Shown piece after piece: positions 11,885-58,671 of a DNA stretch of 64,000 nucleotides. Numbering within the stretch: position 1 is the stretch's first letter; each line of letters opens with the position of its first letter. Below the pieces are notes generated by a model. That model did no database searches. It had not been told where the DNA came from and worked only from the letters and a program-made list of their open reading frames with translations. Source of the DNA: Gammaproteobacteria bacterium (GTDB lineage Bacteria > Pseudomonadota > Gammaproteobacteria > Pseudomonadales > Pseudohongiellaceae); contig PBYU01000016.1 of the NCBI GenBank assembly GCA_002730035.1, positions 126,098 through 190,097 of the forward strand, given 5' to 3'. The translations under genes and the position numbers were made by a program.

Positions 11885-11887
11885 GCG

Positions 11888-13738: not shown

Positions 13739-13743
13739 CCGAA

Positions 13744-13968
13744 CTACTGAAAACTGTCGGGTAGCTCGTCCAGTTCGTCGAAGTCAAATAGCAGATCGAT
13801 CCGCTTGCAGTCTAAGCGTTCTTCTATGCGTCTGCGCAACTCGGTAAAATGCGATTTATCGGATGAGGAGACGACTTTCAGATCAGGCTCTTCTTCCGGC
13901 AAGATGGCAGTTGTTTCTATGAATTCTCTACTATCCTCGAAGGAGTCATCCCATTTCTGCTCTTTCAT
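13744..13968 (-). CDS. Small acidic hypothetical protein
   Basis: 74-aa ORF, strongly acidic, with an RRRIEERLD...FDFDELDEL tail. No confident family assignment. Confidence 0.45.
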   Translation of the reverse strand: MKEQKWDDSFEDSREFIETTAILPEEEPDLKVVSSSDKSHFTELRRRIEERLDCKRIDLLFDFDELDELPDSFQ

Positions 13969-14161
13969 GGCGCCTCTCTCTGGTTTCGGCCTAATGAGTT
14001 GGTCTGGGTATTTCCTGTGTCATGCAATTTTGGAAAAGGCTGCTTTTTACAGTGCCTAATAGTCTTATCGTGAGGCAGGGGATGAATCTTCAATAAAAAA
14101 TGTCACAGCAATCCAATGCTGCAGCCTGACAGGCCAGCGACCGAGACTGGAGAGTTCTCGA

Positions 14162-15925: not shown

Positions 15926-15934
15926 GGTACGCCG

Positions 15935-40567: not shown

Positions 40568-40921
40568 CAGAATTTCCCGCTCGGGACGTATACTCTTAAA
40601 GGCCGATGTGTGGCTATTTTCGGCCATTGTCGAGGCAGATTGAGGCATTACTCCGACTAACTGATTTAGCTGGGTTTTGTCCAGATTGGCGCCCTTAAAT
40701 CCTTGCTTTTCGGGGCGGGTTAATGGGATAGTTAAGGCCGTAATATTGAAATAATCTGCTGCGTCTGGCGGTCAGTAAAGACGTAACTCTGCGCGGAATC
40801 GCGCTGAGATTTGCCAGATAATTTATTCGGACTGACTACAGTAATCGAGTAGTATTCTGGTTGCAGATACGGGGCGCCGATAGCGCGGAAGCCTTCCCAC
40901 AAATCAGACACAAGAGTCTCT

Positions 40922-43900
40922 ATGTCTTCTCCCACATTCGAAAGTCTACGAGCTATCTTAAAGAGTCTTCGCCGCCGTCGCAGCAATCTATTTTTCCTCA
41001 AGCAAGGCAGCTACTTTGTAATAGGTGTTGCAACACTGGTGTTGGCAGTCAGTGGGCTTGCTGCCTGGCAGGAACTCGATAAGACAGGTATCACTGTTCT
41101 GTTTATCGTTTCGCTCGCCGGATTGGTTCTATTGCTGTGGCGCCTGGTGTGGGTATTGAATCGAAGTCATACCGATGATAGGCGTATGGCACATTATGTC
41201 GAAGATCATATTCCAGACCTGGAACAGCGCCTGCTTACCTCTCTGGAATTTACCGATGAAGATTTAGTCCACGGCAAGGCCGGAGTCTCCCAACAATTTA
41301 TTCAGCAGCTGTGGCAAGACGCACAGGCACATGTGCAGCAACAGCAGTACGAAGTGGAGACCGTCACTCCCGCGAAGGGTTCCTGGTTCTCATTCGGATC
41401 GGCTAGCGCCGTGGTAGCCATTGTAGTAGGCATCTTCCTGACCTCGGATATCCTGATGATTGCAGGTAGCCGGTTAGTCTGGCCGTTTGCTATCTCCGAG
41501 CCCACAGTGGTGGTGGAGGTTTTCGCAGACATTGAAATCAGTATCGAGCCCGGTGATCTGGAGATGCAACGTGGTGACAGCGTCACCATTATCGCCCGGG
41601 TCACCAATGCCATTCCCGGAGCGGTCAATTTACGCCTGCAGGATGACAATGTTAACTGGCGCGATGCGTCTATGAGTCGCGACGGTAGCGGCAGCGAGAG
41701 CGCTACTTATAGTTATTTCATCCCCGCCTTGCAGGAAGACACCACCTACTATGTCACCTTCAATGAACGGGGCGAGCACAATTCACCACAATACCAGATA
41801 GACCTGTTTGATCTGCCGCAGATCGAACAGATCGATCTGGCCTTCGATTATCCGGAGTACACCGAGATCGAGGATATCCTCGAGGAAGACAGCGGCGACA
41901 TGATTGTACCGGAAGGAACCCGTATTGACTTCACCGTGACGTTTAACAAGGCGATAGCCAGCGCCAACGTGGAATTCGATGAGAGTTATAGGGCGGATGA
42001 GGAAGAAGTAAATCCAAACCCGCCTTATCCAGATATCGAATTAAGTCTCGACGGCAATATCGGTACCGGTTCCTTCACCGTCAACCAGGATGGTGTGTAC
42101 CGCATCCATGCCACGGACTTCTCCGATCTCAGTAGCAAGAACCCGTTGGATTATTTTATTCGTGCCATCGAAGACACACCACCGGAATTGGCACTGCAGC
42201 GGCCCGGTCGCGACGAAGAAGTCATGCCGTTGGAAGAAGTCATATTGGAAGTGAGCGCCAGCGATGACTATGGGCTGAGCGAGTTTACACTGAACTACTC
42301 TGTGGTGGGCACTGGGGAGGTGGAAGTCGATTTTCTGCCGGAAGCTAATGTACGCAGTGTGTCTGGCAACGAGCTTATCTACCTGGAGGATCTCGAGGTA
42401 GAGCCAGGCGATTTTGTCAGCTACTTTCTAACCCTGGCTGATAACAACGGCCTGCAAGGACCGGCTGAAGTCATCTCCGACATCTATTTTCTACAGATCA
42501 TTCCTACCGATCAGGAATTCAGACGCAATCCCAGCATGAGTGGTGGGCAAGGCGCCGGCGGTGGTCAGGGTGGTGACAGCAGCGCACTGGTCAGTATTCA
42601 GAAAGATATTATTGCGGCAACTTGGAAGCTGAAGAACAGACAGAGCAAGGTGTCCCCCGAAGCGTTTTCCAACGATGCCGAAATCATCGCTGAGTCTCAA
42701 AAAGAGGCGACCGGTCGGGCGCGCATGTCCATAGATCGTCTGGTAGAGCGTTTGAATTTTTCCGACGATACCTATGATGCCGCGGTGGAGAACTTATCCC
42801 TTGCTATTGATCAGATGAACCTGGCAGCAGGCGAGCTGGACCTGGAGCAAGTTACCAGTGCCTTGCAACCGGAGCAGCTTGCGCTGCAACATCTACTCAG
42901 AGCAGAGGCGAGCATTAACCGCACCAACATCAGCATGCAGCAGGGTGGTGGTGGCGGAGGCGGCGGTGCCCAACAGGAAAGGGAAGATTTGCGGGAGCTG
43001 TTCGAGATGGAAATGGGACAGCTGGAGAATCGCTACGAAACTCCCAACAGCGCCGGTGGCGGTTCCCAAGAAAACCAGGAAGAGGTCAACAAGCTGGAAG
43101 AGCTGGCCCGACGCCAGGAAGGTCTGACCCGGGCGCAGCGCAATCTGGCACGTCGCGAAAAGCAGATGACAGAGGAACAGAAGCGCAGGGAGCTGGAGCG
43201 GTTGATGCGCCAACAGGAGCAGCTGAGCCGTGAAGTTGCGCAACTTGCACAGCAATTGTCGCGGGGTCAGCAGAGCTCGCAGTCTCAATCTCAGAGCGGT
43301 CAGCAATCCCAGTCCCAGTCCCAATCCCAATCTCAGTCTCAGGCACAGTCCTCTTCCAGTGGAGGCTCATCGGGCGGACAGCAGCAACCGCAGACTGCAT
43401 TAGAACGTGCGGCGCAACAGATGCAGGAAGCGGCCGAGAGCGAAACTGCTTCGATTGCGGCTGCGCGCAGCCAGAAAGCACTCGAGAATCTGCGCGAGCA
43501 GCAACGCGAGATGAACAAGGAAGGGGAACGCTCAGTTAATCAGCTGGCGCAAAATCTGGGACAGCGTGGCCAACAGCTGTTGCAACAACAGCGTGATCTG
43601 CAGGAATCATTGCAGGAAGCCACTCGTCAACAGGGTCTGGGCCAGACTCGCCAATCCGTACGCAGCGATGAAAGTATGCAGGAGCTGATTGAGTCACAAC
43701 AACAGCAACAGCGCGACCTGGAAGAGATCGAAGACATGTTGCGCGCCATCATCGCCCGTGGTGATAGCGACGATCAGCGCCTGATGTCACAAGCACAGGA
43801 GGCGTCGCGAGATCTGCGGCCTATAAGAGAAGAGATGCAGACCAGCAACCGTGTGCTTCGCAATGGCATGGTGAACTTATCGGTTGATATTGAACGAGAG

Positions 43901-44638
43901 CTGGAAGGCGAGATTGAAGATTTTGCCCAATCCCTGGCGGCGCTCAACCCGTCCCGTGGAGATTCTGCCTCGGATCAGATTCAACAGGCGGCACGCGATG
44001 CCGCAGACCTGCGGGAACAAATTGAAGCACTAGAACAACAGGCCCTGGCATTTAACGAGGCAGGTCAACAAGCCGGTGCTGGCACACCCAGCGTCAGAGA
44101 GCTGCGCGATCAGCTGCAGCGCTCCCAACAACTCGCGCAAAGCCTGCAGCAACAATTGCAGCAGCAGGCACAGGGTGGTGGTCAACAGCCGGGCGGTCAG
44201 CAACCAGGTGGTCAGCAACCGGGTGGTCAGCAATCCGGCGGGCAGCAGCCCGGCAGCCAACCGGGCGGGGCTAATGCCCAGGGGGGTCGACAACAGATAG
44301 GTGGCGCTCGTGGCGGAAACCAGGACCAGGCCGGCATCGGCGGCAGGGTCACTACCGACGGTAATAATTCACCATGGGGTAATGCTCGCTCGATTCGTCA
44401 GCAATTAACGCAGCAGGGTATAGAAGATTTCCTCAACCAGCCGGAGTTGTTCAGGGGGCTCTTGCAGCCGATCTTGGAACTGGAAGGCGCACTGCGCGCT
44501 CAGGCGGAACTGGATAATATCAATAACAAGCTATTTGCCACGGTAGATGAGGATGTGCCGGACGAGTATCGTGAACTCGTCGAAGAGTATTACCGTGTAT
44601 TGTCAGAGAATCCGGGGTCCGCTAACCAGGCCCAGTAA
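40922..44638 (+). CDS. DUF4175-type large membrane protein with a Gln-rich coiled-coil region
   Basis: It has two N-terminal TM helices, then a beta-rich region, then long Q/E/R-rich coiled coil with SQ and GGQQP repeats. The C-terminal EYRELVEEYYRVL motif is typical of this family. Confidence 0.75.
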   Translation: MSSPTFESLRAILKSLRRRRSNLFFLKQGSYFVIGVATLVLAVSGLAAWQELDKTGITVLFIVSLAGLVLLLWRLVWVLNRSHTDDRRMAHYVEDHIPDLEQRLLTSLEFTDEDLVHGKAGVSQQFIQQLWQDAQAHVQQQQYEVETVTPAKGSWFSFGSASAVVAIVVGIFLTSDILMIAGSRLVWPFAISEPTVVVEVFADIEISIEPGDLEMQRGDSVTIIARVTNAIPGAVNLRLQDDNVNWRDASMSRDGSGSESATYSYFIPALQEDTTYYVTFNERGEHNSPQYQIDLFDLPQIEQIDLAFDYPEYTEIEDILEEDSGDMIVPEGTRIDFTVTFNKAIASANVEFDESYRADEEEVNPNPPYPDIELSLDGNIGTGSFTVNQDGVYRIHATDFSDLSSKNPLDYFIRAIEDTPPELALQRPGRDEEVMPLEEVILEVSASDDYGLSEFTLNYSVVGTGEVEVDFLPEANVRSVSGNELIYLEDLEVEPGDFVSYFLTLADNNGLQGPAEVISDIYFLQIIPTDQEFRRNPSMSGGQGAGGGQGGDSSALVSIQKDIIAATWKLKNRQSKVSPEAFSNDAEIIAESQKEATGRARMSIDRLVERLNFSDDTYDAAVENLSLAIDQMNLAAGELDLEQVTSALQPEQLALQHLLRAEASINRTNISMQQGGGGGGGGAQQEREDLRELFEMEMGQLENRYETPNSAGGGSQENQEEVNKLEELARRQEGLTRAQRNLARREKQMTEEQKRRELERLMRQQEQLSREVAQLAQQLSRGQQSSQSQSQSGQQSQSQSQSQSQSQAQSSSSGGSSGGQQQPQTALERAAQQMQEAAESETASIAAARSQKALENLREQQREMNKEGERSVNQLAQNLGQRGQQLLQQQRDLQESLQEATRQQGLGQTRQSVRSDESMQELIESQQQQQRDLEEIEDMLRAIIARGDSDDQRLMSQAQEASRDLRPIREEMQTSNRVLRNGMVNLSVDIERELEGEIEDFAQSLAALNPSRGDSASDQIQQAARDAADLREQIEALEQQALAFNEAGQQAGAGTPSVRELRDQLQRSQQLAQSLQQQLQQQAQGGGQQPGGQQPGGQQPGGQQSGGQQPGSQPGGANAQGGRQQIGGARGGNQDQAGIGGRVTTDGNNSPWGNARSIRQQLTQQGIEDFLNQPELFRGLLQPILELEGALRAQAELDNINNKLFATVDEDVPDEYRELVEEYYRVLSENPGSANQAQ

Positions 44639-44640
44639 CA

Positions 44641-46944
44641 ATGCAATACACCATACCTAATCTTCTCACTGCACTCGAAGAAGGCACATTCAGCTTTGCC
44701 TACGGAATCAGTCCGTATTTATTCGCTGTTCTCGTTGTCCTGATCGTAGTCGGAGTGTGGCTGACCTACCTGAAAACCACTCGCCCACTGTCACCAGCCT
44801 GGAAATCCTTCTTCGTGGCTACGCGTTCCAGTGTACTGATCATCTTGCTGTTCTGTTTGCTTCGACCAGTGATTACTACACTGCAGGTGTCGCCGCAGGA
44901 GACTTATCTGGGAGTGCTCATCGATGACTCCCAGAGCATGTCCATCGCCGATTTAGATGGCGGTCAATCGCGGCAACAGCTTGTTGAGGAACAATTTTTC
45001 GATGACGGCCTGCTGGATGATTTAGGGTCGTCTTTTCAGATTCGCATCTTTCGGTTCGACAAGGATACCCAACGCTTTGCAGGTGTCGATGGCTTAACCG
45101 AAGCGGGCACAGCATCTTCCATAGACCAGGCACTGGGCTATGTCGACGATCAGCTAAATGGATTACCGCTAGGTGGCCTGGTGTTGATTAGCGATGGGGC
45201 GGATAACAGTGAGATCGATCCGGTGATCAAGGCACAGGAATTTGGCAATCGACAAATTCCGATCTTCACCGTCGGCGTTGGTCAGGAAGACATTCCCCAG
45301 GATATCGGCATCGTCGATGTCTCGGCTGCGAAAACCGTACTCGAGGGTTCGGTATTCGATGTACAGGTTGCATTGAACCATCAGGGCTACCAGGGGCAGG
45401 AAGTCGAACTCTCCATTATGGATGGAGAAACAGTAGTTGAGTCAGACGTGGTCATTCTGGGAGCGGAAGGTGTATCGCGGTACTTCGAACTGGAACTGAC
45501 TCCCGAGCGGCAGGAGTTGATTACCTACGACCTGCAAGTCGAACTGCAGAGCGGAGAGATAATCGAACAAAACAACCATTACAGTTTCCTGGTGGACAAT
45601 ACCGAAAAACAGGCACTCGATGTTTTATATATAGAAGGACACCCGCGTAACGAGTACAAGTTTATCCGGCGAGCTCTGGAAGACGATAACTCATTACGGT
45701 TGGCTACCTATTTACAAACCGGTCCCGAAAAATACTATCGGCAGGGTATAGAGTCACCGACTGAACTGAGCAGTGGCTTTCCCGAAGATCGGGAATCGCT
45801 CTACCAGTACGAGGCGATCATACTGGGGGATATCGAAAAGAATTTTTTCAATGCAGACCAACTGCAGATGCTTGAAGACTTCGTTGCCGAACGCGGCGGT
45901 GGATTTCTGATGAGCGGCATGGTGGATGAAGAGTTTGTCGGAACTCCGATTGCCGATATTTTACCTATTACTTTGGTCGAAGAGAATTTTCTGCAACCCC
46001 ACCTGCGTGGCGGAATTCGTCGTGGCGGGCATGCTACTGGCGAACTTTTCTATCCGCGGCTCACCAATAACGGTGAATTTTCCCCACTAATGAGGCTGGC
46101 CGGAGACGATTCCAGTAATCGTGCCCTATGGGGAGCACTACCTCAATTGCAGGGCGTTTATGTTAGCGGGCGCATCAAACCGGGTGCAACGGTGCTGCTG
46201 GAACACCCGCTATTAAACTATCAGGCGCAGGCACTGCCGCTAATCGCCTCCCAGCGCTATGGGAGCGGTCGTAGCATGTCTGTTACTACTGCCAGCACCT
46301 GGCGATGGCAGATGATGTTGCCCTCCGAGGATCAGTCTCACGAAACGATCTGGCGTCAATTGCTGCGTTGGTTATCGGTCTCTGCACCTGAACGGATAAG
46401 TATCGATTTCGATCGTGAGTTCTACAATGTGGGGGATGAAGTCAGTGTCACCACCACAGTACTGAATGACGAGTATGAGCCTGACAACGATGCCACGCTA
46501 TGGATGCAGACCACCGATCCACTCGATCAGATCACTGACACGCCGATGGAATGGGACATCGAAGAAGATGGCGTGTATCGGGCGAGTTTTACGGTGCAGG
46601 AAGAGGGGGTTTTCAGCCTGCTGGTGGACGTGGCCAGTGCAGCAGGAAATGCCAGTGCAGACAGCTCCGAGAAACGTGCGGCGTTTGTGGTTACTCCATC
46701 ATTGCGAGAATATACCAATGCGGAAATGGACTCTGGACTGTTGGCTCGTATCGCCGATGCCAGTGGCGGCGGCTACTTTAATCTGTCCGATTCAGCCGGG
46801 CTGACAGACGCTATAGAATTTACACCCAACACCTATTCACGCGAAGTGCAATTCGATCTCTGGGACCAGCCCTGGTTGCTGGCGCTGTTGATATTGATAA
46901 TGTGTATAGACTGGATTGCCAGACGTATGCGAGGACTGTCCTGA
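44641..46944 (+). CDS. Membrane protein with a vWA-like (MIDAS DDSQS) domain and a GATase1-like domain
   Basis: It has N-terminal TM helices and LGVLIDDSQSMS. A later block, LDVLYIEGHPRNEYKFIRRAL...YEAIILGDI, is followed by a C-terminal TM anchor. Confidence 0.75.
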   Translation: MQYTIPNLLTALEEGTFSFAYGISPYLFAVLVVLIVVGVWLTYLKTTRPLSPAWKSFFVATRSSVLIILLFCLLRPVITTLQVSPQETYLGVLIDDSQSMSIADLDGGQSRQQLVEEQFFDDGLLDDLGSSFQIRIFRFDKDTQRFAGVDGLTEAGTASSIDQALGYVDDQLNGLPLGGLVLISDGADNSEIDPVIKAQEFGNRQIPIFTVGVGQEDIPQDIGIVDVSAAKTVLEGSVFDVQVALNHQGYQGQEVELSIMDGETVVESDVVILGAEGVSRYFELELTPERQELITYDLQVELQSGEIIEQNNHYSFLVDNTEKQALDVLYIEGHPRNEYKFIRRALEDDNSLRLATYLQTGPEKYYRQGIESPTELSSGFPEDRESLYQYEAIILGDIEKNFFNADQLQMLEDFVAERGGGFLMSGMVDEEFVGTPIADILPITLVEENFLQPHLRGGIRRGGHATGELFYPRLTNNGEFSPLMRLAGDDSSNRALWGALPQLQGVYVSGRIKPGATVLLEHPLLNYQAQALPLIASQRYGSGRSMSVTTASTWRWQMMLPSEDQSHETIWRQLLRWLSVSAPERISIDFDREFYNVGDEVSVTTTVLNDEYEPDNDATLWMQTTDPLDQITDTPMEWDIEEDGVYRASFTVQEEGVFSLLVDVASAAGNASADSSEKRAAFVVTPSLREYTNAEMDSGLLARIADASGGGYFNLSDSAGLTDAIEFTPNTYSREVQFDLWDQPWLLALLILIMCIDWIARRMRGLS

Positions 46945-46945
46945 G

Positions 46946-48025
46946 ATGTGGTGGGTAGATAACGTGAATAACCGACTGAAACAGGCACTGCAATTAAGTT
47001 GCTGCTGCTGGTCGTTGCTTGGCATACAAAGCAATACCCAGGCGCAACTGTCCATCGAAAACAACACCAATTTCTTTCTCGACAGCCCCGAATCCACCAA
47101 GTACGCCGTAATCATGGCGGGCCCGTCGGCCGGCGAACAAAACCAGACGCGGTTTCGACAGTGGGCCTTCTCGTTGCACGACATCCTGGCACGGGACTAC
47201 GGCTACAGCTCCGACACGATTACCCTGCTGCTTGATCGGGGTGAGCAGGATTCCCCTGGTGGAGAACGCATCGACGGTGCCTGCGATCGAAACGGTATCG
47301 AACAGGGCCTGGCGACACTCAAAGCACGCGTCGAGACTGGTGATCAGATCACCCTGTACCTGATCGGTCACGGCTCCGGCGCAGAAGAAGAGGCCAAGTT
47401 CAATATCGTCGGTCCGGACATCACCGGCATTGAATTCGCAGGGATGCTCGACCAGTTCGATGAACAGGACATTGCAATAATTAATACCACCAGCGCCAGC
47501 TATGGTTTCTCCACCTCGCTGTCGGGCGAAGGGCGGGTGATTATCTCATCGACCCGCTCACCATCGGAACGCTATGACCCTATCTTCTCGCAGTACTTTA
47601 TCGAGGCGCTGGACAGTCGTAATGGCGATCGGGATAAAAACAATCGTGTTTCCATGCTGGAGGCCTTCGAATATGCCAAGAGTAATGTGCAAGCCTGGTA
47701 CGAAGAACAGGGCCGGCTAGCTCCAGAGCACGCCGGTCTGGACGACAACGGCGATGCGCTGTTTGCCCTGGAACCCACCCTGGATGCAGCGGACGGCAGA
47801 TTAGCGGAGATTGCCTATATCGACACTCTGCTGCTTAGTAATGAAGGACTGTCACCGGCGGCCCTTTCTCTGAAGGCAAAGATGCAGGAGTTGGAGCGCT
47901 CAGTATTTATTCTGCGTGGCCGCAAGGCCGATTATCTGGAAGCCGATTATTGGCAGCAGATGGAAGTGTTGCTGGTTGAGCTGGCACGCACAACAGGACA
48001 ATTCAATGAACAGACTACACAGTAA
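46946..48025 (+). CDS. Secreted legumain/peptidase C13-like (caspase-fold) protein with Ser at the expected catalytic Cys position
   Basis: It has a signal peptide (LQLSCCCWSLLGIQSNTQAQ). A His-Gly dyad lies in LYLIGHGSG. The downstream block IAIINTTSASYGF occupies the place where C13 enzymes carry ..SACxSG. Confidence 0.6.
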   Translation: MWWVDNVNNRLKQALQLSCCCWSLLGIQSNTQAQLSIENNTNFFLDSPESTKYAVIMAGPSAGEQNQTRFRQWAFSLHDILARDYGYSSDTITLLLDRGEQDSPGGERIDGACDRNGIEQGLATLKARVETGDQITLYLIGHGSGAEEEAKFNIVGPDITGIEFAGMLDQFDEQDIAIINTTSASYGFSTSLSGEGRVIISSTRSPSERYDPIFSQYFIEALDSRNGDRDKNNRVSMLEAFEYAKSNVQAWYEEQGRLAPEHAGLDDNGDALFALEPTLDAADGRLAEIAYIDTLLLSNEGLSPAALSLKAKMQELERSVFILRGRKADYLEADYWQQMEVLLVELARTTGQFNEQTTQ

Positions 48026-50705
48026 ATCGGTAGCACGACAATTCATCCTCGGGCTTGTCCTTCTCCCATGGTCATTACTGGTGTATGGGCAGGACAATTT
48101 GACCAATACGGGTGAGTCGCCTCTGCTGCGTGGCGAACAGTTAATGATGACGGGTTCCTATGCTGCCGCGAGTGACATCTTTCAGATGGCAGATGGCCTG
48201 GACCGCAACGATGGACTGGTAGGCGCCAGCAGAGCCTTCGCCATGATGGGCAACTACCAGCAAGCCATGGCAGTGGTGGAAGATGCCATAGAAGATGCTG
48301 AATATGCGCGCTTCCCCCTGTTAAGCACGCAGCTGGCGGAGGTTAAGAGAGGCATCGGGCAATCGTCGCAGGCACTGGCAATCCTGGAAGCTGTGGTGAG
48401 TGGACTGGTGGACCCCCCGGTGCGAGCACTGGTGCAGTACGGCAGTCTGCTGAAGCTGGTCGGCGAGAAGCAGGCCGCGAATGAGATACTCGATCAGGCC
48501 GTGCAGCGTTACAACGATGGGCTGGTATTCAGTTCTGAAGACGTGGCCATGGTGGCCCTGGCCAGCTGGCTAATGGATAGCTTTCATGATGCCAACAGCC
48601 TGTTTAACGAGGCGACCCGCGCCAACCCGAATAATCTCGAAGCCCATGTCCTGTGGGCTGACCTGTTCCTGGAGAAGTACAACGCCAGTGACGCCGAGCG
48701 TTCCTATCAGGAAGCTCTCGACATCAATAGTCGCTACACCCCGGCTCTGGTGGGTATCGCCAGGGTAGTTGGCGACGAGCGTGCACTGCAGCGGGCATTA
48801 GCGATCAATCCAAATTCCGTAGCGGCGCTGGAGACTTACGGTCAATTGCTGTTGATGAATAGCAGGGATGACGAGGCCCAGGACTACTTCAGCCGCGTGT
48901 TGGCACTCAATCCCGAATCGATCAAGACCCTCAGCGTGCTGGCTGCCCAGGCAGCCCTCAATGAGCGGACTGATGAGTACCAGCAATACCTGGCCCAGGT
49001 CGAGGCTTTCAGCCCCAATAATCCCCAGTTCCTCGGCGATGTGGCGGATGCCCACGGCAATAAATACCTCTTCGAGGAAGCTGTAGAGTACGCTAGGGCA
49101 GCCATCGAGGCCGACCCGCAATACTGGCAGGGCTACACCCTGCTGGGGAGCAACCTGATTCGACTGGGTGAAGAAGAAGAGGGCAAGGCCAATCTGGAGA
49201 TCGGCTTTGAGAATGACCCGTTTAACGTCATGACATCGAACATGCTGAAGGTGTTTGACACCTTGGATACCTACACCACTCAGGAAAGCGAGCACTTCAA
49301 AGTGCATATGAGCGAGAACGACGCCGATATCCTGTGGCCCTACCTCGAACCACTATTAGAAGAAGGCTGGGAAACATTGACAGCCAAGTACGACTTCGAA
49401 CCTGAAGGACCGATCCTGATAGAGGTGTTTGAGAAGACGGAGGATTTTGCCGTCCGTTCCGTAGGCTTGCCTGACATCGGGCCGCTGGTGGGCATCTGCT
49501 TCGGTAAGGTAATCACCCTCATTTCACCCGATACCCTGTCCGCCAACTGGCAGGAAATTGTATGGCACGAGTTCATGCACATCATTACCCTGCAGATGAC
49601 CGACAATCGCATGCCACGCTGGTTGTCCGAAGGCATCTCGGTGTGGGAAGAACGGGAAGGCCGACCCTACTGGGGTAGAAGCCAGGGTCTGGACCTGGTG
49701 CGTGCTGCCCGTGATGACAAGTTGTTACCGGTTGCCGAGCTCAACTCCGGCTTCTCCGGTGCCCGTAATAATGCCGATCTGGGATTCGCCTATTTTCAGT
49801 CCTACCTGGTGGTCGATTACATCACCGAGGCATACGGTTTCGACAAGCTGGTGGAACTGGTCAAGCAATACGCCTTTATAAAGGAAGACACTGACCGGTT
49901 TTCTGAAGTATTTGATCAGTCCTTGGGCGCATTCGATGCCGGTTTCAATGCCTGGATCGAGCAGCAGGTTGCAGAGATCAATGTGTATGTGCATACCGAG
50001 GATGTGCCGGATGAAGGCGAGGGGCACGGGCACGGAGTCCGTGAGAATTCCAGCGCAATTCTTGCGGAACTGTATAACAACGCTTCACTGAAACAACATA
50101 TGCGCGCACGCATCGAAGAAAACGAGCGTGACTTCCAGGCCTATCTGCAATTAGGCATCGTGCTGTTTAAGGAAGAGGGCTTCGAAGAGGCCAAGTTCTA
50201 TCTGCAAGCTGCCTACGAGATGCTACCCAGCTATACCGGTTACCCGAGCCCAGCGCTGGTGCTCTCACAAATCTATGAGAAGGAGCAGAACCGCGAAGCG
50301 CAGCTTGAATGGCTGGAGACGCTGCTGGAGAACCTGCAGCATGACTACGACTCGGCGATGGTGCTCGCCGATGCTGCCCTCGACCAGAGCAATCATGAGC
50401 GAGCCGCCTACTATATCGACCGTGCCATCCAGGTAGATCCCTATCGCAGCGGAGTGCACGAGTTAAAGGCACGCTATGCCGAGAGTATCGATGATAGCGC
50501 TCTGGCGGTTACCGAGTATGAAGTGCTGGTCAAGCTGGAAATCAATGATCCTGTTGAGGCCCGCACCAACTTAGCCGAAGCCTATCTGCGCAATGGTCAG
50601 ATCTCTGAAGCCAAGCAGAATGTGCTGTATGCGCTGGAGATCGCACCGAGTTTCCAACGCGCACAACAGGTCCTGCTGCAATCCGTCGACAGGGAAGAGA
50701 ATTAG
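48007..50705 (+). CDS. Secreted TPR-repeat protein with a peptidase MA (gluzincin)-like domain
   Basis: The start MNRLHSKSVARQFILGLVLLPWSLLVYGQ is a signal peptide. TPR-like repeats lie on both sides of the motif WHEFMHIITLQ...WLSEGISVWEE (HExxH plus a downstream Glu). Confidence 0.75.
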
Positions 50706-51544
50706 TGCAGCGATCTGTTTTCCTAAGCCATCTGTTCTGCGCCAGTCTGTTACTGATTGTCGCGCCCGGGGCGACCTCCCAGGTGATGCCGTTAGGGAAT
50801 AATGAAGATATGTCTATCTACGGGACTGATATTACGGAATTCACCTGGATTCGCGGTCAGTACAGCAATCACGGCGGCGGCCGCGGAGGATATGGATACA
50901 GGCGGCGTGGCGGCTGGTGGGATACGGATTATCCGGATTCCGATGAAAATTTCTTGAGAGGTGTACAGCGTTACACCAATGTAGATACCAATCCACGCAA
51001 TCACACTAATATTGAGCTAACAGATCCGGTTCTGTACGAACATATCTTTTTGTATATGAACTGGAAAAGAGTGCCAATTGGCTCCTCTTATTCCGGGCCG
51101 AATTTTCAACCCGAAGAGATCGAAGCCCTTCGCGAATTCATGTTTCGCGGTGGCTTTGTCATGGTCGATGATTTCTGGGGGCAGCCACATCTGAATGATA
51201 TGTTCGTGGAGATAGCCAAGATCTTTCCCGACCGTGAGATCGTGAAGCTGGACACCAGCCACGAGATTTTTCACATTTTTTTCGACATTGATGAACTCGC
51301 CCAGGTACCAGGTCGCATGGTGACATGGGACTTCGGTGGTTTCATGCGACTCGACGACCCGGAATATCCGCCGGAAGTTTACGCAATACTCGATGACGAT
51401 GGGCGGGTGATGATGGTCGCCAATTACAACACTGACCTCGGCGACGGCTGGGAACATACCTTCTATGAGGGCTATCCTACCAAGTACACGAACGAAGCCT
51501 ACAAGATCGGCATCAATTTTTTAATCTATGCATTTAGTCACTGA
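50705..51544 (+). CDS. DUF4159-family protein
   Basis: It has a signal peptide and the WWDTDYPDSDENFLRGVQRYTNV block characteristic of DUF4159. It lies directly upstream of moxR. The GTG start overlaps the upstream stop (TAGTG). Confidence 0.7.
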   Translation: MQRSVFLSHLFCASLLLIVAPGATSQVMPLGNNEDMSIYGTDITEFTWIRGQYSNHGGGRGGYGYRRRGGWWDTDYPDSDENFLRGVQRYTNVDTNPRNHTNIELTDPVLYEHIFLYMNWKRVPIGSSYSGPNFQPEEIEALREFMFRGGFVMVDDFWGQPHLNDMFVEIAKIFPDREIVKLDTSHEIFHIFFDIDELAQVPGRMVTWDFGGFMRLDDPEYPPEVYAILDDDGRVMMVANYNTDLGDGWEHTFYEGYPTKYTNEAYKIGINFLIYAFSH

Positions 51545-51560
51545 ACGACAGGAATAACAA

Positions 51561-52595
51561 ATGTCAGAAGCAGAATCAGAAGAAGTATTGGAAATTGAGA
51601 ATCAGGATGATCTCGCGTTAGTTAAGCGGATGCAGGAAGGCAGGGAAAAAATTGTTGCCGAGATCAAGAAGATAATTATCGGACAGGAAGAGATTATCGA
51701 TGAGCTACTGATTGCCCTGTTTGGTGGTGGCCATGTTCTCGTTACTGGTGTTCCTGGATTGGCTAAGACGCTGTTGATTAAAACTGTCGCAGACATCCTG
51801 CAGGTGGATTTCAGTCGCATCCAGTTTACTCCCGACCTGATGCCAGCGGATGTGGTTGGGTCTGAAGTGATTGATGAAAGTGACGGCACGCGCAAGTTAA
51901 AGTTCGTCAAGGGTCCCATCTTTACCAATATCCTACTGGCCGATGAGATTAACCGTACACCCCCCAAGACCCAGTCATCCCTGTTAGAGGCCATGGAAGA
52001 ACGGCAAGTGACAGCGGCAGGCGTGACCCATGTTATGGCCGAGCCCTTCTTCGTGTTAGCGACCCAAAATCCCATCGAACTGGAAGGTACCTATCCCTTG
52101 CCGGAAGCGCAGTTGGATAGATTCATGTTCAAGATCGAACTGGGCTATCTGTCCGAGGCCGATGAAATAACCGTAGTAAGGCAAACCACCCAGACCCATG
52201 ATACGGCACTGGCTCACCCCCTGGGCGGCGAGGATATCCTGGAATTTCAACGCATCGCCCGCCTGGTGCCGGCCGCGGAAGCGGTGATTCAGTATGCAGT
52301 GAGGCTGGTCCATGCATCGCGTCCGCAGAGCGATAAGGCACCTGATTTTATTCGAGACTGGGTCAGCTGGGGTGGTGGCATACGTGCGTCGCAGAACCTC
52401 ATCCTCGCCGGCAAAGTCAGGGCACTGCTGCTCGGTCGTTACAACGTCTCCTACGGCGATGTGAGGGCTTTGGCTCCTCCGATATTGCGTCACAGAATCC
52501 TGCTGAACTTCCATGCGGAGGCAGAAAGAGTGACTACCAACGATGTGATTCAACGCCTGCTGGAGGCGGTACCTGAGCCATCTTCCGAACTATAG
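51561..52595 (+). CDS. MoxR-family AAA+ ATPase
   Basis: Walker A is GVPGLAKT and Walker B is ILLADEINR. The MoxR-type blocks RIQFTPDLMPADVVG and FFVLATQNPIELEGTYPLPEAQLDRF are present. Confidence 0.9.
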   Translation: MSEAESEEVLEIENQDDLALVKRMQEGREKIVAEIKKIIIGQEEIIDELLIALFGGGHVLVTGVPGLAKTLLIKTVADILQVDFSRIQFTPDLMPADVVGSEVIDESDGTRKLKFVKGPIFTNILLADEINRTPPKTQSSLLEAMEERQVTAAGVTHVMAEPFFVLATQNPIELEGTYPLPEAQLDRFMFKIELGYLSEADEITVVRQTTQTHDTALAHPLGGEDILEFQRIARLVPAAEAVIQYAVRLVHASRPQSDKAPDFIRDWVSWGGGIRASQNLILAGKVRALLLGRYNVSYGDVRALAPPILRHRILLNFHAEAERVTTNDVIQRLLEAVPEPSSEL

Positions 52596-52613
52596 CAGCT
52601 CGAGCGATTCCTT

Positions 52614-53507
52614 ATGTCTGAATCACTGAATTTTCTGGACCCCAGCGTGCTGGCTGGTCTCGACAATCTCGAGCTGCGGGCCCGTGTCGTCGTGGAAGGT
52701 TTTCTCGCCGGACTGCACAAGAGTCCCCACAAAGGCTTCAGCCCGGAGTTTAATGATTATCGCCACTATCAGCGTGGCGATGACATGCGCCATGTGGACT
52801 GGAAGCTGTATGCCCGCAGCGACAAGTTCTACATCAAGCAGTATGAAGATGAGACGAACGTGCGATGTGTGATCCTGCTGGACACCAGTGCGTCAATGGA
52901 CTACAGCTCAGGGGGTATGAGCAAGTTAAATTATGGTATAACCCTGGCCTCAGCCCTGGCGTATTTTGTTATGCGGCAGCGCGATGCGGTGGGTTTAATT
53001 ACCTTCGATGATCAGGTTCGAGATTATATTCCGACCAAATGCCGGCAACCGCACCTGATGCACATCTTGAGGACGCTCTCACAGGTAGAGTCCGGATTAA
53101 AGACGGACGTGGTGAAACCACTGTCTGATCTGGCAGCATCGCTGACAAAGAAAAGCATGGTGGTGCTGATCACCGACATGCTGGACGACGAGGAACGCAT
53201 CATTAATACTCTGCAAAATATCCGTGGTATGGGCAACGATGTGATTACCTTTCAGATCATGGATGATGCGGAGCTGAATTTTCCCTTTAACGAGGCCTCG
53301 GAATTTATCGACATGGAAAACAACGAGTCCTATATCACGTCGCCAGCCGCGATCCGTAAGGCCTATCTGGAGAATATCAACGAATTTCTGTCCTATTGCC
53401 GCAAAAAATGTCAGAGTAGCGGCGTGGATTACTGCCTGATGAATACCGCAGAGCCTCTCGATGGGGCCTTGTCCTCCTATATGGCAAAACGGGCGAAGAG
53501 TTTCTAA
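52614..53507 (+). CDS. DUF58 protein (vWA-like, MIDAS DTSAS)
   Basis: The GFSPEFNDYRHYQRGDDMRHVDWKLYARSDKFYIKQYEDE block is typical of DUF58. It follows moxR. Confidence 0.9.
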   Translation: MSESLNFLDPSVLAGLDNLELRARVVVEGFLAGLHKSPHKGFSPEFNDYRHYQRGDDMRHVDWKLYARSDKFYIKQYEDETNVRCVILLDTSASMDYSSGGMSKLNYGITLASALAYFVMRQRDAVGLITFDDQVRDYIPTKCRQPHLMHILRTLSQVESGLKTDVVKPLSDLAASLTKKSMVVLITDMLDDEERIINTLQNIRGMGNDVITFQIMDDAELNFPFNEASEFIDMENNESYITSPAAIRKAYLENINEFLSYCRKKCQSSGVDYCLMNTAEPLDGALSSYMAKRAKSF

Positions 53508-55531
53508 TGGTATTTCTGACACCCCTGTTCCTGCTGGGTTTATTGGCCGCGTTGATTCCCATCGCGATTCATCTCATTCGTCGGGAGAAGCCACCCAAGC
53601 TGATGTTCAGTACCATCCGCTTCCTCAAGAAGACGTCGAAGAAACTGATTCTGTTTCAACAACTGCAACAGATCTTACTGTTACTGTTGCGTTCTGCCGT
53701 TATCGCCTTGCTGGTGATTGCGTTTGCCCGACCCCTGTTCAACCAGTCAATTGCCAGGCTGCTGGATACCGATCCTCAGTCCGCCGTCATCCTTCTCGAT
53801 ATTTCGATGAGTATGCAATACGGAGAGACTTTCACGCGGGCGAAGGAAGAGGCGCTGGATCTTCTCGACAGTCTGACGTCGGGGGATGAAGTCGCTCTGA
53901 TTGCTTTCTCGGATTCTGCCGAGATTGTCAGGGAACTGAATACCGATAGTGACAGCGTTCGCAGCGTCATCAACGGACTAGAGCAAGCCGGTTTCGGTGC
54001 CACTCGTTATATGCCCAACCTGCGGCTTGCAGATCAACTGCTGGAGACGTCTCGCTATGAGAATCGGGCGGTGTACCTGATCTCTGATTTTCAGGAGGCT
54101 GGCATGCAAGAGGCCGAAGAAGGCTGGAAGCTGGCGCCTGGCGTCGCCTTTACCGGCATCGATGTCGGTGAACTCGAGAGCAGTAACCTGGTATTAACTG
54201 ATGTGCGTTCACCGGAACAATTGCTCGAGGATGCCAGCGAACAGCAGATTCTCGCCAGAGTCCGCACAACCGGCACGCTGTATCTGGATCAGGGCGAAGT
54301 CTCCCTGAGTATCGATGGGAAAATGGTGGATCGCGTCCCGGTAGACCTTGGCGATCGCTCGGAAGAAGTTATCGCCTTTACTACCGTGTTCGATACCGAA
54401 GGCACCCACGTCGGAGAGGTCAGAGTGACTGGCGACGAGTTTGATGTCGATAATGCCTATTTCTTCACGGTCGATGTGCTGCCGAAGATCCGCGTCTTGC
54501 TGGTTAACGGTGAAGCTTCCGATAACTGGTTCGATGATGAAGGGCACTGGTTTGGATTGGCGGTCAGCAGCACGGAGGAATCTCCTTTTCAGCTCGAAAC
54601 TATTGAGCCCGCAGCATTGACGGCGGCGGCACTGCGTCAGAATGATGTGGCGGTCCTGCTTAATGTCGGTGACCTTAGCGGCAACCAGGCAGACGCTATT
54701 ACTGCCTATGTAGAGACCGGTGGTGCGATACTGATTGCACCGGGCGACCGGGTAAATCCAGATTTATTCAATCGCCAGTTCGACGACATTGCACCGGCTA
54801 CGCTGCAAAGCCAGGATGTACTCGGTCGCGATGACTATCTGGTTATTGCCGATTGGGATCGGCGTCATCCCATACTACGGCCGCTGGACAGCGATTGGTC
54901 AGCCCGCTTTCAGGGGCTCTGGTCGCTGCTTCCCAACGCAGATGCCGATGTGTTGATGCAGTTCGACAACACCGAGCCGGCATTGGTGGAACGCGAAATA
55001 GGCGAGGGCAAGGTTATCCTGTTTGCCTCATCCCTGGACCTGGAATGGAATAATCTGCCGCTACAGGGACTGTTCCTACCCTTCGTCCATCAAACCCTGC
55101 GCCACCTCGTGCAGCCGCCGGTTAAACAGCGGGCCTATCAGATTGGGGACAGCTTCAGTCTCGACCAATCCGGGGAAGCAGAGACTGTCAGCGCCGTCGA
55201 TTCCAACGGCGATAGCATTGACTTCAGCAATGATGGCTACGTCATTACCGCCGCCACTCCAGGCATGATTAACGCCAGTGTGGATGGTGAGAATGCTCGC
55301 TTCGCGATTAATATTCTTCCAGCGGAATCGAATTTCACGAGAACAGCGGTCGCTACCCTGTATGATTCGATCATTAACCCCGATACCAATCCTATACAGT
55401 CACGGGAAGTTCAAACTGCGCAACTGATCGAAGAACTGGAGAGACCCCAACGAATCTGGTGGTGGATCCTGACCCTGGTGATGTTGCTGGTAATAACAGA
55501 AGCTGTAATCGCCAATCGTACCTATCGCTGA
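53507..55531 (+). CDS. BatA-N-terminal-domain plus vWA (MIDAS DISMS) membrane protein
   Basis: The N-terminus MVFLTPLFLLGLLAALIPIAIHLI is the aerotolerance-regulator N-terminal motif. It is followed by a vWA domain and a C-terminal TM anchor. The start overlaps the DUF58 stop (TAATG). Confidence 0.85.
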   Translation: MVFLTPLFLLGLLAALIPIAIHLIRREKPPKLMFSTIRFLKKTSKKLILFQQLQQILLLLLRSAVIALLVIAFARPLFNQSIARLLDTDPQSAVILLDISMSMQYGETFTRAKEEALDLLDSLTSGDEVALIAFSDSAEIVRELNTDSDSVRSVINGLEQAGFGATRYMPNLRLADQLLETSRYENRAVYLISDFQEAGMQEAEEGWKLAPGVAFTGIDVGELESSNLVLTDVRSPEQLLEDASEQQILARVRTTGTLYLDQGEVSLSIDGKMVDRVPVDLGDRSEEVIAFTTVFDTEGTHVGEVRVTGDEFDVDNAYFFTVDVLPKIRVLLVNGEASDNWFDDEGHWFGLAVSSTEESPFQLETIEPAALTAAALRQNDVAVLLNVGDLSGNQADAITAYVETGGAILIAPGDRVNPDLFNRQFDDIAPATLQSQDVLGRDDYLVIADWDRRHPILRPLDSDWSARFQGLWSLLPNADADVLMQFDNTEPALVEREIGEGKVILFASSLDLEWNNLPLQGLFLPFVHQTLRHLVQPPVKQRAYQIGDSFSLDQSGEAETVSAVDSNGDSIDFSNDGYVITAATPGMINASVDGENARFAINILPAESNFTRTAVATLYDSIINPDTNPIQSREVQTAQLIEELERPQRIWWWILTLVMLLVITEAVIANRTYR

Positions 55532-55695: not shown

Positions 55696-55722
55696 GTCAC
55701 AAATTGTCACAAAATTGTAACA
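55696..55722 (+). promoter_or_regulatory. Three phased GTnACA hexamers (GTCACAaattGTCACAaaattGTAACA) upstream of ORF 55801
   Basis: Direct hexamers lie at 55696, 55706 and 55717 (10- and 11-bp spacing). Related sites are GTTACAatttGTCACA at 56847-56862 and GTCACAAAT at 57133. Confidence 0.45.
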
Positions 55723-55800
55723 GGCCGTAAAATATTTTATTTTTTTATTGAATATTAGGAGGTTATGAGCAATAGTAATTCGTAATAAGAGCGCACAGAT

Positions 55801-56562
55801 ATGAAAATTATCGAAGTATTATTGCCGCCAATAGAAAGATTTTTACCCTTCGACGCTGCGAGATTTTTCGTACTAGCCATTTCTTTTGCCCTCGTAACAC
55901 TCGCAACTTTCTCCAATTCCAGTCTTGCTCAGCAGAATAACTTCAGTTCCATCGATTCAGGATTGGCTAGCCAGTTCCCCTTGCCGCTGGAGGTCCTGCA
56001 GCTCGAGTTCAGCCCCTATGACTATCGATTGGAAGAGCCGTTGAACGATATGGCTTTGAGAATGCAGGAGGCAAACGATCATGAAGCGGCGCTCAAGGTA
56101 TTCAAGAAGGTCTGGCAGGTAAACAGGGTGAATAATGGGCTGCTTCACAAGTCTCAATTGGCACTGTTGGAGAACATGATTAGCAGCGAGAGGGAATTGG
56201 GTGATTGGGAGGCGGTAAGCAAGCACTATGCTCATCTGGAACATTTGTACCGGCGGCTCTATGACATGGATGATCCACAGCTCGAGTCGGGCTTACAGAA
56301 AATTTCGGCCTGGTACGTTAGTGCTATAAATATGAATCGCGATGGCAAACGCATGGAGCACCTGCGCAAGGCGCACCAGATCTTCAAGCTTAGATTGCAA
56401 ATTGCAGAATTAACCCTGGCCGCAGATGATCCCAAGTTCGCATTTCTTCATGAGAGCATTGCCGTGAGCGAACATCAGCTCTATATGGCCAACATCCCTA
56501 AAGAAGTTAAACGAACTCGACGGCGAACCCAGCGCGACCGTTTGCTTGCTGGACTCGACTAG
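55801..56562 (+). CDS. Hypothetical membrane-anchored helical (TPR-like) protein
   Basis: 253-aa ORF with an N-terminal hydrophobic anchor and helical repeats. It is flanked by long AT-rich non-coding DNA. Confidence 0.55.
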   Translation: MKIIEVLLPPIERFLPFDAARFFVLAISFALVTLATFSNSSLAQQNNFSSIDSGLASQFPLPLEVLQLEFSPYDYRLEEPLNDMALRMQEANDHEAALKVFKKVWQVNRVNNGLLHKSQLALLENMISSERELGDWEAVSKHYAHLEHLYRRLYDMDDPQLESGLQKISAWYVSAINMNRDGKRMEHLRKAHQIFKLRLQIAELTLAADDPKFAFLHESIAVSEHQLYMANIPKEVKRTRRRTQRDRLLAGLD

Positions 56563-57335: not shown

Positions 57336-58470
57336 ATGAGAAGTTCGAATTTTGGTTACATACCCGCTCTCGATCACCTGCGAGGGTTCGCTGCGTTGCT
57401 GGTGCTGTTCTTTCATGGCTGTCACTTAATCTCTCACAAACTGCAAAGTAATGTTCCCTACGATCTGAGTTTCTGGCCGCGTGCCGAGAATCCATTTTCC
57501 TCATTAATCCTGGAAGGTCACACGGCCGTCTCTCTGTTCTTCGTGCTGAGTGCATTTGTGTTTACTGTAGGCTCGACTAATCGGGATCTGAATTTTACAG
57601 GATTCTATCGAAATCGATTGCTCCGTACTTATCTGCTTTTTCTGTTTTTTTCTCGCTCTTGGCATCCTCTTTAACACTGAAAACTTCAGCTGGGCTGGCC
57701 TGCTGCATTCAATTTTCTTCATGGCCAACAACGCCCAGGCGATCGATGGAGGTCCTCCTTTTACCTTCGTATTCTGGTCTATTGCCGTTGAGTGGCATTT
57801 CTACCTGTTATTCCCATTGCTGATTCTATTGGTGAAGAAGTTTGACTGGCATCTGTTGCCAATACTGATACTGGTATTTTTCACACTGCGCTACTACCTG
57901 ATGTTGCAGGGAGTTGACATGCTGGTTGTCAGTTACTGGACGATTCTCGGCCGGATAGACCAATTCCTGATTGGCATGCTCACGGGACTGTTTTATGTGA
58001 AGCATTTTGAACAGGGCAGGAAATTTGATGCTCTCGCATTTGTGGGTTTGATTCTGGTACTGACAGCCCTGTTTGTGTTCAATCAGTATGGCGGCAATGG
58101 CAGTAACAATGTCAAGTGGGCTATCTGGCTCACGATCGAAGCGAGTTGCTGGGCAATCTTCATAATCGGCTACCTGTCCTTAGGCAGACATTTTCCCGCC
58201 GCCCTCGGCAAGGGATTGGTGGCTCTGGGAACAGTGAGCTACTCGATATACCTTGTACATTACGTAGTGCTGGATTTTCTGATGGGCAGGGACTGGGATG
58301 TCTGGCTGCGAGTTGCCGATCCATTCGGTACTGCCTTGCTGAACACCACATTGATTCTGATGCCCCTGGTTGTGTTGATCTCTGCTGGCACCTACTGGCT
58401 GATCGAGCGGCCATTCCTGGTGCGCCGCAAGACTTACATGGTCAGGGCCGAGGCTATTGAATCGGCATAA
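57336..58470 (+). pseudogene. Acyltransferase-3 (OafA/YrhL-type) family gene interrupted by a +1 frameshift in a T7 run
   Basis: ORF 57336-57674 starts with the family N-terminus (IPALDHLRGFAALLVLFFHG). ORF 57721-58470 continues the family (FWSIAVEWHFYLLFP). Removing one T from T7 at 57645-57651 joins them in frame. Confidence 0.7.
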
Positions 58471-58593: not shown

Positions 58594-58671
58594 GCCGCTA
58601 TAGCTCAGCCGTGGTAGAGCAGCTGATTTGTAATCAGCAGGTCCCGAGTTCGACTCTTGGTGGCGGCACCA
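58594..58671 (+). tRNA. tRNA-Thr (anticodon UGU) with encoded CCA
   Basis: I folded the cloverleaf by hand. The acceptor pairs GCCGCTA/TGGCGGC, the D stem GCTC/GAGC, and the anticodon stem GCTGA/TCAGC with loop TTTGTAA. The T arm is CCGAG-TTCGACT-CTTGG, followed by discriminator A and CCA. Confidence 0.9.

Follow-up and report, generated by a model that had tools for sequence, protein, structure and literature searches.

The 64,000-nucleotide stretch of Pseudohongiellaceae DNA analyzed here (contig PBYU01000016.1; hereafter the window) carries, at 40922-55531, eight plus-strand genes (g1 to g8) that form an extended variant of the Bat- and Cmd-type systems, in which a core of MoxR ATPase, DUF58 protein and BatA-type von Willebrand factor A (vWA) protein is accompanied by a fixed set of partners that we did not find described in the literature. 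The cluster is conserved in at least three bacterial phyla. Its place in the MoxR-DUF58-BatA class follows from the family assignments, the synteny across phyla and the intact ATPase, zincin and metal-ion-dependent adhesion site (MIDAS) motifs. We tentatively read the cluster as encoding a MoxR/DUF58-driven, inner-membrane-anchored periplasmic scaffold of MIDAS proteins with a protease module, which would serve envelope homeostasis; we put the chances of this reading at a little below even.

The eight open reading frames are spaced by at most 18 nt or overlap (Table 1), with junction spacings taken directly from the window sequence and the table of open reading frames. The sequence bears out the original prediction of eight tightly packed genes on one strand with TAGTG and TAATG junctions, except that the overlap of g3 and g4, previously given as 19 nt, is 20 nt. 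The start of g4 was taken as the ATG at 48006, where an N-terminal hydrophobic segment is encoded. No paralogs of the eight genes were found elsewhere in the 64-kb window.

Table 1. Genes of the cluster, their junctions and the putative promoter upstream, in window positions.
Feature	Position	Strand	Description	Basis
g1	40922-44638	+	1238 aa, DUF4175-type inner-membrane protein (predicted)	Pfam DUF4175
g2	44641-46944	+	767 aa, double-anchored membrane protein (predicted)	Pfam GATase1_like, transmembrane and MIDAS positions
g3	46946-48025	+	359 aa, C13 (legumain/GPI8)-fold protein, predicted exported, C-terminal helical hairpin	Fold and family homology
g4	48006-50705	+	899 aa, predicted exported, TPR arrays on both sides of a Peptidase_MA_2 gluzincin	Pfam
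g5	50705-51544	+	279 aa, DUF4159 protein, predicted exported	Pfam DUF4159, 127 bits
g6	51561-52595	+	344 aa, MoxR-type AAA+ ATPase	Pfam AAA_3, 212 bits, and AAA_lid_2
g7	52614-53507	+	297 aa, DUF58 protein, vWA-like fold	Pfam DUF58, 163 bits; VWA_2, 41 bits
g8	53507-55531	+	674 aa, BatA-type double-anchored protein (predicted)	Pfam BatA, TIGR02226
g1/g2 junction			Gap of 2 nt	
g2/g3 junction	TGA 46942-46944, ATG 46946		Gap of 1 nt	
g3/g4 junction	48006-48025		Overlap of 20 nt	
g4/g5 junction	50703-50707		TAGTG	
g5/g6 junction			Gap of 16 nt	
g6/g7 junction			Gap of 18 nt	
g7/g8 junction	53505-53509		TAATG	
Putative sigma-70-type promoter	40703-40732	+	TTGCTT, 18-nt spacer, TGnGATAGT (extended -10)	~190 nt before the g1 start codon (ATG)

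The MoxR and DUF58 calls made for g6 and g7 in the original prediction were recovered with the Pfam scores given in Table 1, as was the DTSAS motif of g7. In g6 the Walker A (GxPGLAKT) and Walker B (LADEINR) motifs are invariant in 36/36 orthologs, and the protein matches an uncharacterized structural-genomics structure (2r44) at 6.2e-79. Against the NCBIfam RavA model it scores 15.5 bits for a cut-off of 681, placing it outside the RavA subfamily. The MIDAS motif of g7 begins at Asp90 (D90-T-S-A-S), with D90, S92 and S94 invariant in 28/28 sequences, and g7 is presumed to be the adaptor of the ATPase.

The third core protein, g8, agrees with its earlier description as a BatA_N and vWA protein with a DISMS motif. 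It consists of a BatA_N hairpin of two transmembrane (TM) helices, a vWA domain, a CARDB-like beta-sandwich, a GATase1/ThuA-like domain and a C-terminal TM helix (BatA 60 bits and VWA_2 56 bits in Pfam, with weak matches to ThuA, GATase1_like and CARDB; TIGR02226 66 bits in NCBIfam), and its MIDAS motif (D98-I-S-M-S) is invariant in 25/25 sequences. The TM protein with a DDSQS motif and a GATase1-like module that had been proposed for g2 was also found, with two N-terminal TM helices followed by a vWA-like domain, a GATase1-like domain (29 bits), an MG2-like beta-sandwich and a C-terminal TM helix; the VWA and MG2 matches are weak, and the MIDAS motif (D95-D-S-Q-S) is kept in 50/50 non-gapped distant orthologs. 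By comparison of their family profiles, g2 and g8 are paralogs (hhalign probability 98.8%, E 8.6e-17, 532 columns). Pairwise BLAST of the two proteins was insignificant, and their likeness emerged with profiles.

The topology of the cluster proteins was predicted from hydrophobic segments and the positive-inside rule. Because they have no TM or signal segment, g6 and g7 are predicted to be cytoplasmic. The membrane proteins g1, g2 and g8 appear to reside in the inner membrane, with large domains in the periplasm and short conserved loops in the cytoplasm, and g3, g4 and g5, each of which begins with a signal-like hydrophobic segment (residues 5-23 in g5), are probably exported. The hairpin loop of g8 is conserved (H22, R26 and F34-P/S-S-L-M-F39) and strongly basic, and is therefore predicted to be cytoplasmic, which would leave the vWA, beta-sandwich and GATase1-like region in the periplasm; the C-terminal TM helix carries a basic tail, and the layout of g2 is the same. 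The vWA domain of BB0173, a BatA-type protein of Borrelia, is periplasmic by experiment (PMC5700661), in agreement with the layout predicted for g8 and g2. With this topology the ATPase and its adaptor could reach only the short cytoplasmic loops of g1, g2 and g8. The predicted arrangement fits an envelope or periplasmic complex.

The largest protein of the cluster, g1, was correctly called a DUF4175-type protein, exceeding the Pfam cut-off (PF13779; 27.3 bits) both as a whole (29.9 bits) and over residues 185-560 (33.5 bits), with a match that covers only the N-terminal third of the profile (positions ~22-324 of 825). The earlier count of two TM helices did not stand, as three TM-like segments are present (23-41, 57-75 and 163-181). 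A K/R-rich N-terminus is followed by a beta-rich region at ~190-540 and then by a low-complexity, Q/E/G/A-rich and helical C-terminal half. The predicted topology consists of the basic N-terminus, a TM hairpin, ~85 cytoplasmic residues, the third TM segment and ~1050 periplasmic residues. Distant orthologs align over residues ~30-780 only, leaving the Gln-rich C-terminal half unaligned, which suggests that this half is a rapidly evolving low-complexity region. Within it are two short stretches repeated in tandem and in frame, (SQ)n (43304-43351) and (GGQQP)5 (44177-44254).

The conservation of the cluster was assessed at two depths. With each GTDB species represented by a single genome, a scan returned gammaproteobacterial relatives at ≥65% identity only and gave 138 loci with a relative of g3, of which 80 were kept. 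Their labels are Pseudohongiella, Pseudohongiellaceae, Pseudomonadales or unclassified gammaproteobacterial, apart from a few that were binned under other names. In 80/80 loci the eight genes keep one order and one strand as far as the contig extends, usually with a NUDIX gene upstream and often with a gene for a 253-aa protein downstream, and the best related locus, in an Arabian Sea metagenome-assembled genome (MAG), is 93-96% identical. For the wider search, metagenome contigs were scanned with distant g3 homologs (31-39% identity). The same gene set was found in Gemmatimonadota and Acidobacteriota in a rotated order, DUF4159' - g2 - g3 - (g4) - DUF4159 - MoxR - DUF58 - BatA - DUF4175, with DUF4175 at the opposite end. 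The Gemmatimonadota sequence CP070792 and a Vicinamibacteria MAG, both annotated with Pfam, share this rotated order with 4-nt stop/start overlaps, and the 1.1-Mb plasmid 1 of Gemmatirosa kalamazoonensis KBS708, a cultured soil bacterium, carries g2-g3-g4-g5-g6-g7-g8-g1. In the distant orthologs the Walker A and B motifs, the three MIDAS motifs and the HExxH...E motif of g4 are invariant. Collinearity in every related locus and recurrence of the gene set in other phyla place the arrangement far beyond chance. These loci confirm that variants with DUF4159 and DUF4175 are widespread, as originally stated, and that the C13-like and TPR-zincin genes accompany the core outside the Gammaproteobacteria: g2 lies directly 5' of g3 in 29/29 distant loci covering that side, and g4 is present in 17 of 28 (~60%). 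The distant loci have between two and four DUF4159 copies, one ahead of g2, one ahead of moxR and frequently one or two more beyond DUF4175, compared with one in the window.

The rearrangements also raise the possibility that the cluster consists of two functionally separate neighbors, an exported protease and scaffold group (g1-g5) and a standard MoxR-DUF58-BatA unit (g6-g8). A Planctomyces plasmid carries only a four-gene core of MoxR, DUF58, BatA and a g2-like gene, without g3, g4 or DUF4159; g1 is the first gene of the cluster in some phyla and the last in others; one locus is interrupted by sbcCD; and the largest internal gaps in the window (16-18 nt) flank moxR. These gaps are nevertheless too small for a promoter, all parts have stayed linked in three phyla in spite of rearrangement, and g2 belongs to the Planctomyces core yet lies in the other half here, so that the halves are interleaved. 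We regard such a division as distinctly improbable. The interruption is found in an Acidobacteria MAG (QHZQ01000068.1), where an opposite-strand pair at 11357-16272, encoding an SMC_N/AAA_27 ATPase and a Metallophos nuclease and read as sbcC/sbcD-like, lies between the g3 and g4 orthologs; the cluster can therefore be split at this point and is nonetheless retained.

Of the two exported protease-like proteins in the original prediction, g4 has a full catalytic motif and g3 lacks the nucleophilic cysteine. The description of g4 as a TPR protein with an HEFMH...E zincin motif was confirmed, with Peptidase_MA_2 scoring 66.8 bits for a cut-off of 32.4 alongside many TPR families. The motif corresponds to H521-E-F-M-H525 followed by E542 and E548, and H521, E522, H525, E542 and E548 are invariant in 28/28 sequences (that of the window and 27 distant orthologs). 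Judged by these residues, g4 looks catalytically competent, and it is the only protease-like component of the cluster with a complete active site.

The invariant zinc site of g4 also enters a different account, in which MoxR and DUF58 would insert a metal cofactor or mature a metalloprotein, as in MoxR/methanol dehydrogenase, NorQ/NorD, CoxD/CoxE and CbbQ/CbbO; the client would be either the cluster's own g4 and MIDAS proteins or an envelope enzyme encoded elsewhere, and the membrane proteins would provide a delivery platform. MoxR-vWA pairs have been described as chaperones that relieve inhibition or stimulate metal insertion (PMC8926400), and the cluster combines this zinc site with three invariant MIDAS sites. 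However, the candidate clients are predicted to be exported and MoxR and DUF58 to be cytoplasmic, g4 is missing from ~40% of the distant loci while the remainder of the cluster persists, and no gene for a metal transporter or metallochaperone is linked to the annotated loci. On this evidence metal maturation seems unlikely.

The predicted DUF4159 gene was recovered as g5, whose closest solved structure is the uncharacterized structural-genomics entry Hoch_4089 (4i66, E 5.5e-4). We take DUF4159 to belong to the class I glutamine-amidotransferase-like/ThuA-like superfamily; profile comparison of g5 with the GATase1-like parts of g2 and g8 gave no significant similarity. An HEIFH sequence in g5 was considered as a second zincin site and rejected as a chance match, being not conserved, with Pro usually following the His. 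A search of plasmids for DUF4159 returned isolated copies in Corynebacterium and Gemmatirosa and was uninformative. One of these is a lone DUF4159 gene without a MoxR partner on plasmid pCRULAC1 of Corynebacterium crudilactis (NZ_CP015623.1, 11917-12534), in a multi-resistance region with IS26/IS6 elements, aph, sul2 and dfr.

The protein encoded directly downstream of g2 was harder to place. The window sequence of g3 has no Pfam match at E≤0.1 and no NCBIfam match, and a single-sequence search of the PDB reached an E of only ~0.4. Its family is very large and unannotated, with 2039 clusters at 50% identity for E≤1e-3 and 1267 for E≤1e-10. Peptidase_C13 of Pfam is matched by 24 of 44 diverse members (best E 5.7e-9), some orthologs are named 'C13 family peptidase' by NCBI, and the family profile finds metacaspase-4 in the PDB at 2.3e-8. 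A first AlphaFold2 model built with close relatives only had a predicted local distance difference test score (pLDDT) of 56, and its metacaspase matches were not trusted alone. After addition of distant homologs, the model reached a pLDDT of 88.2 and a predicted template modeling score of 0.81, and Foldseek matched it to PDB structures of the asparaginyl ligase VyPAL2 (2.8e-8), followed by jack bean AEP, human legumain and PIGK (to 7e-7), with metacaspases, CHAT and caspases lower on the list. According to this model, g3 has the C13 (caspase-hemoglobinase) fold. It shares the His-Gly element with legumain, PIGK and the asparaginyl ligases (MEROPS C13, clan CD), and differs from them in having S-A-S instead of Cys and in being a bacterial, predicted periplasmic protein encoded in a MoxR operon.

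While G141-H142-G143 is invariant in the family, the nucleophile segment of g3 reads N-T-T-S183-A184-S185 and contains no Cys; Cys139 of metacaspase-4 aligns to S183. Cys is missing from the aligned segment 183-185 in 243/247 family members, most of which have S-A-S-G, and the remaining 4/247 have x-C-S-G, with Cys at position 184. The 90%-identity cluster of one Cys-bearing relative includes a protein (P0275) from the same type of operon in an Acidobacteria MAG. The g3 ortholog of the interrupted locus in QHZQ01000068.1 is of the rare Cys form (P-C-S-G). The secreted legumain-like protein of the original prediction is thus upheld in its C13 fold, through Foldseek and the 24 matching relatives, and not in a Pfam match of its own or in the catalytic Cys. 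Judging from the alignment, g3 would be either a pseudo-peptidase, with Cys replaced by Ala, or an atypical Ser/His enzyme.

Were the second option to apply, g3 might act through Ser183 and His142 as a periplasmic transpeptidase or ligase that, with the membrane subunits and g4, cuts and re-attaches a protein, for example the Gln-rich tail of the DUF4175 protein, in loose parallel to glycosylphosphatidylinositol (GPI) transamidase, where PIGK is joined by metallopeptidase-like and membrane subunits. The invariance of G141-H142-G143 and the invariant or nearly invariant S183 and S185, in so large a family, indicate selection on the active-site region; the nucleophile of metacaspase-4 aligns to S183; a few orthologs from the same operon have a Cys beside this position; and the closest folds include those of PIGK and peptide asparaginyl ligases. 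Where a Cys does occur it is at position 184, occupied by Ala in g3 and most members; this fits a pseudoenzyme that lost its nucleophile equally well. No substrate motif was identified. A Ser nucleophile is not known from any clan CD enzyme, which also counts against the idea, and we consider it very unlikely. That g3 and its family could be the first clan-CD enzymes with a Ser-His dyad, working as a periplasmic transpeptidase/ligase in a MoxR-powered membrane complex, is accordingly a long shot; if true, it would make g3 a bacterial functional analog of the GPI-transamidase/asparaginyl-ligase machinery, covalently processing envelope proteins beside a metallopeptidase subunit.

Among known systems, the nearest is the Bat operon of Bacteroides fragilis, also present in Spirochaetes, Francisella, Porphyromonas and Riemerella, which like the window encodes MoxR, DUF58 and a BatA_N-vWA protein together. 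The Bat-type core of the original prediction was recovered in these three families, and the likeness is restricted to these three genes. Both clusters have TPR-containing partners, and the Bat kind is known from phenotypes alone (aerotolerance, stress and virulence). In contrast to Bat, no BatD or SH3/BatE family was present among the Pfam matches of the eight proteins (E≤0.01), and the window cluster has no BatB, BatC or BatE equivalent; its second vWA protein is a full-length BatA-type paralog with a GATase1-like domain, its TPR arrays are fused to a gluzincin, and DUF4159, DUF4175 and C13-fold genes are added. The cmdA-D operon of Rhizobium leguminosarum (RL3499-RL3502), a broadly conserved operon of MoxR, DUF58, vWA and membrane proteins, resembles the cluster in its four-gene core. 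The domain order of cmd is reportedly MoxR-DUF58-BatA-g2-like, which would match the Planctomyces plasmid core, and its genes may be equivalent one by one to the four core genes of the window. The window differs in having g1, g3, g4 and g5 in addition and g2 upstream. Mutation of cmdA-D causes cell-envelope and morphology defects (summarized in PMC5700661).

The characterized MoxR-vWA pairs RavA-ViaA, NorQ-NorD, CbbQ-CbbO and CoxD-CoxE, combine an AAA+ MoxR hexamer with a MIDAS vWA adaptor that together remodel a client, a pairing also seen in the window. In these systems the client and the adaptor are both on the cytoplasmic side of the membrane. The window MoxR belongs to another subfamily, and most of its partners are predicted to be periplasmic. 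A functional analogy of a looser kind exists with Arc2 of Pseudomonas aeruginosa (PA4317-23), a MoxR-vWA cluster that defends against an incoming toxin (PMC8926400); Arc2 and the window are both uncharacterized multi-gene clusters with a MoxR-like ATPase and a vWA protein, and differ in their accessory genes and in the confinement of Arc2 to Pseudomonadaceae and Xanthomonadaceae. This precedent, together with a secondary match of g6 to the bpMoxR family of MoxR-vWA-beta-propeller ternary systems (40 bits, far under the AAA_3 score), might suggest that the cluster is an anti-phage or anti-toxin conflict system of the MoxR-vWA type. PADLOC models, however, match none of nine proteins, no beta-propeller or effector gene is present in the cluster, its base composition equals that of the flanks, and it is strictly syntenic with a housekeeping NUDIX neighbor in the related loci that reach it, unlike mobile defense islands. 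A role in conflict is hardly credible on these grounds.

The literature searched reports phenotypes only, in line with the original statement that no substrate or biochemical function has been established for any version. Bat-type genes have been linked to aerotolerance in B. fragilis and show oxygen-dependent expression in Borrelia (PMC5700661), bat/moxR genes of Riemerella affect heat and oxidative stress tolerance and virulence (PMC11834572), and Leptospira Bat proteins have been examined for a role in oxidative stress (PMC3557215). No functional paper on DUF4159 was found in this search; the only mention of DUF4175 was as a domain in AdvA, a division protein of Acinetobacter, and C13-like proteins and TIGR02226 had no link to MoxR clusters or to a function.

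Control of the cluster may lie in the 354-nt intergenic region between NUDIX and g1, which contains a single strongly conserved block of ~45 nt (40690-40736). Its consensus, 'CTTGC.TTT..GG....G.TA.TGGGATAGTTA', is kept in ≥80% of the 52 related loci in the alignment, one of which is that of the window. The block is plausibly an extended -10 promoter, and could also be a regulator binding site. The putative promoter within it (Table 1) was not listed by a generic consensus scan, and a comparison with Rfam gave no RNA element for the cluster or its surroundings. A promoter-like site in front of the downstream gene (55704-55733) makes it probable that the unit stops after g8.

In the scaffold that we tentatively favor, a MoxR hexamer would be recruited via DUF58 and would use ATP to drive the assembly or conformational switching of the membrane proteins through their cytoplasmic loops. 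This would build or gate a scaffold of the vWA/GATase1-like proteins g8 and g2, DUF4159 modules, which may be non-catalytic interaction modules, and the long DUF4175 protein g1. Acidic protein ligands could then be bound at the periplasmic MIDAS sites, processing or degradation would fall to the TPR-flanked gluzincin g4, and the Cys-less g3, encoded directly after g2, would work with g2 in a non-proteolytic or atypical way. As a whole, the system would serve envelope homeostasis and stress tolerance.

Several observations weigh against this model. The ATPase is predicted to be cytoplasmic and its target domains periplasmic, in a topology that is itself a prediction from hydrophobicity and charge. 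The absence of g4 from a substantial minority of distant loci and the single insertion of sbcCD between g3 and g4 indicate that the protease module is dispensable or separable. Counts from the promoter and terminator scan equal those of shuffled sequence, giving no above-background signal for a single transcript, and there is no hairpin terminator after g8. 'Envelope homeostasis' is also a loose label, because Bat-type phenotypes vary among species, and the Leptospira study reportedly found no role in oxidative stress.

The interest of the cluster lies in the class to which it belongs. Few bacterial gene clusters that have repeated phenotypes (aerotolerance, envelope integrity, stress tolerance and virulence) and no known biochemistry are as widespread as the MoxR-DUF58-BatA operons, and the existence of uncharacterized MoxR clusters would not in itself surprise a MoxR specialist. 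What goes beyond the routine is the phylum-spanning extended set and the very large linked family of Cys-less legumain-fold proteins. The fixed extra partners narrow the question by pointing to a protein-handling machine at the periplasmic face of the inner membrane, and they offer experimental handles in the apparently active enzyme predicted for g4 and the conserved atypical active site of g3. The system is abundant in marine and soil metagenomes, and with cultured hosts available (Gemmatirosa kalamazoonensis; Pseudohongiella also has cultured species) the Bat-type question becomes experimentally approachable.

The genes on either side are unrelated to the cluster. Upstream lie genes for NUDIX, SDR and GST proteins, a QTMAN-like glycosyltransferase and, 4 kb from the cluster (34714-37029, plus strand), an envelope-related 771-aa SLT lytic transglycosylase with three LysM repeats by Pfam, which we read as MltD-like. 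Downstream are the gene for the 253-aa protein, which is unannotated, a split acyltransferase gene and tRNA-Thr. The 253-aa protein (55801-56562, plus strand) has one TM-like segment, at its N-terminus, and is matched by neither Pfam nor PADLOC; it follows the cluster in many related gammaproteobacterial loci at 32-87% identity and is probably a separate unit, lying beyond a 269-nt AT-rich gap after g8 that holds the promoter-like site. Two adjacent plus-strand open reading frames (57336-57674 and 57721-58470) match positions 2-87 and 116-325 of the Pfam Acyl_transf_3 profile and look like one acyltransferase gene broken by a frameshift or stop. The stretch at 56-58 kb has a lower GC content (0.458), ends at tRNA-Thr(TGT) (58594-58671) and may be a small island beside the tRNA.

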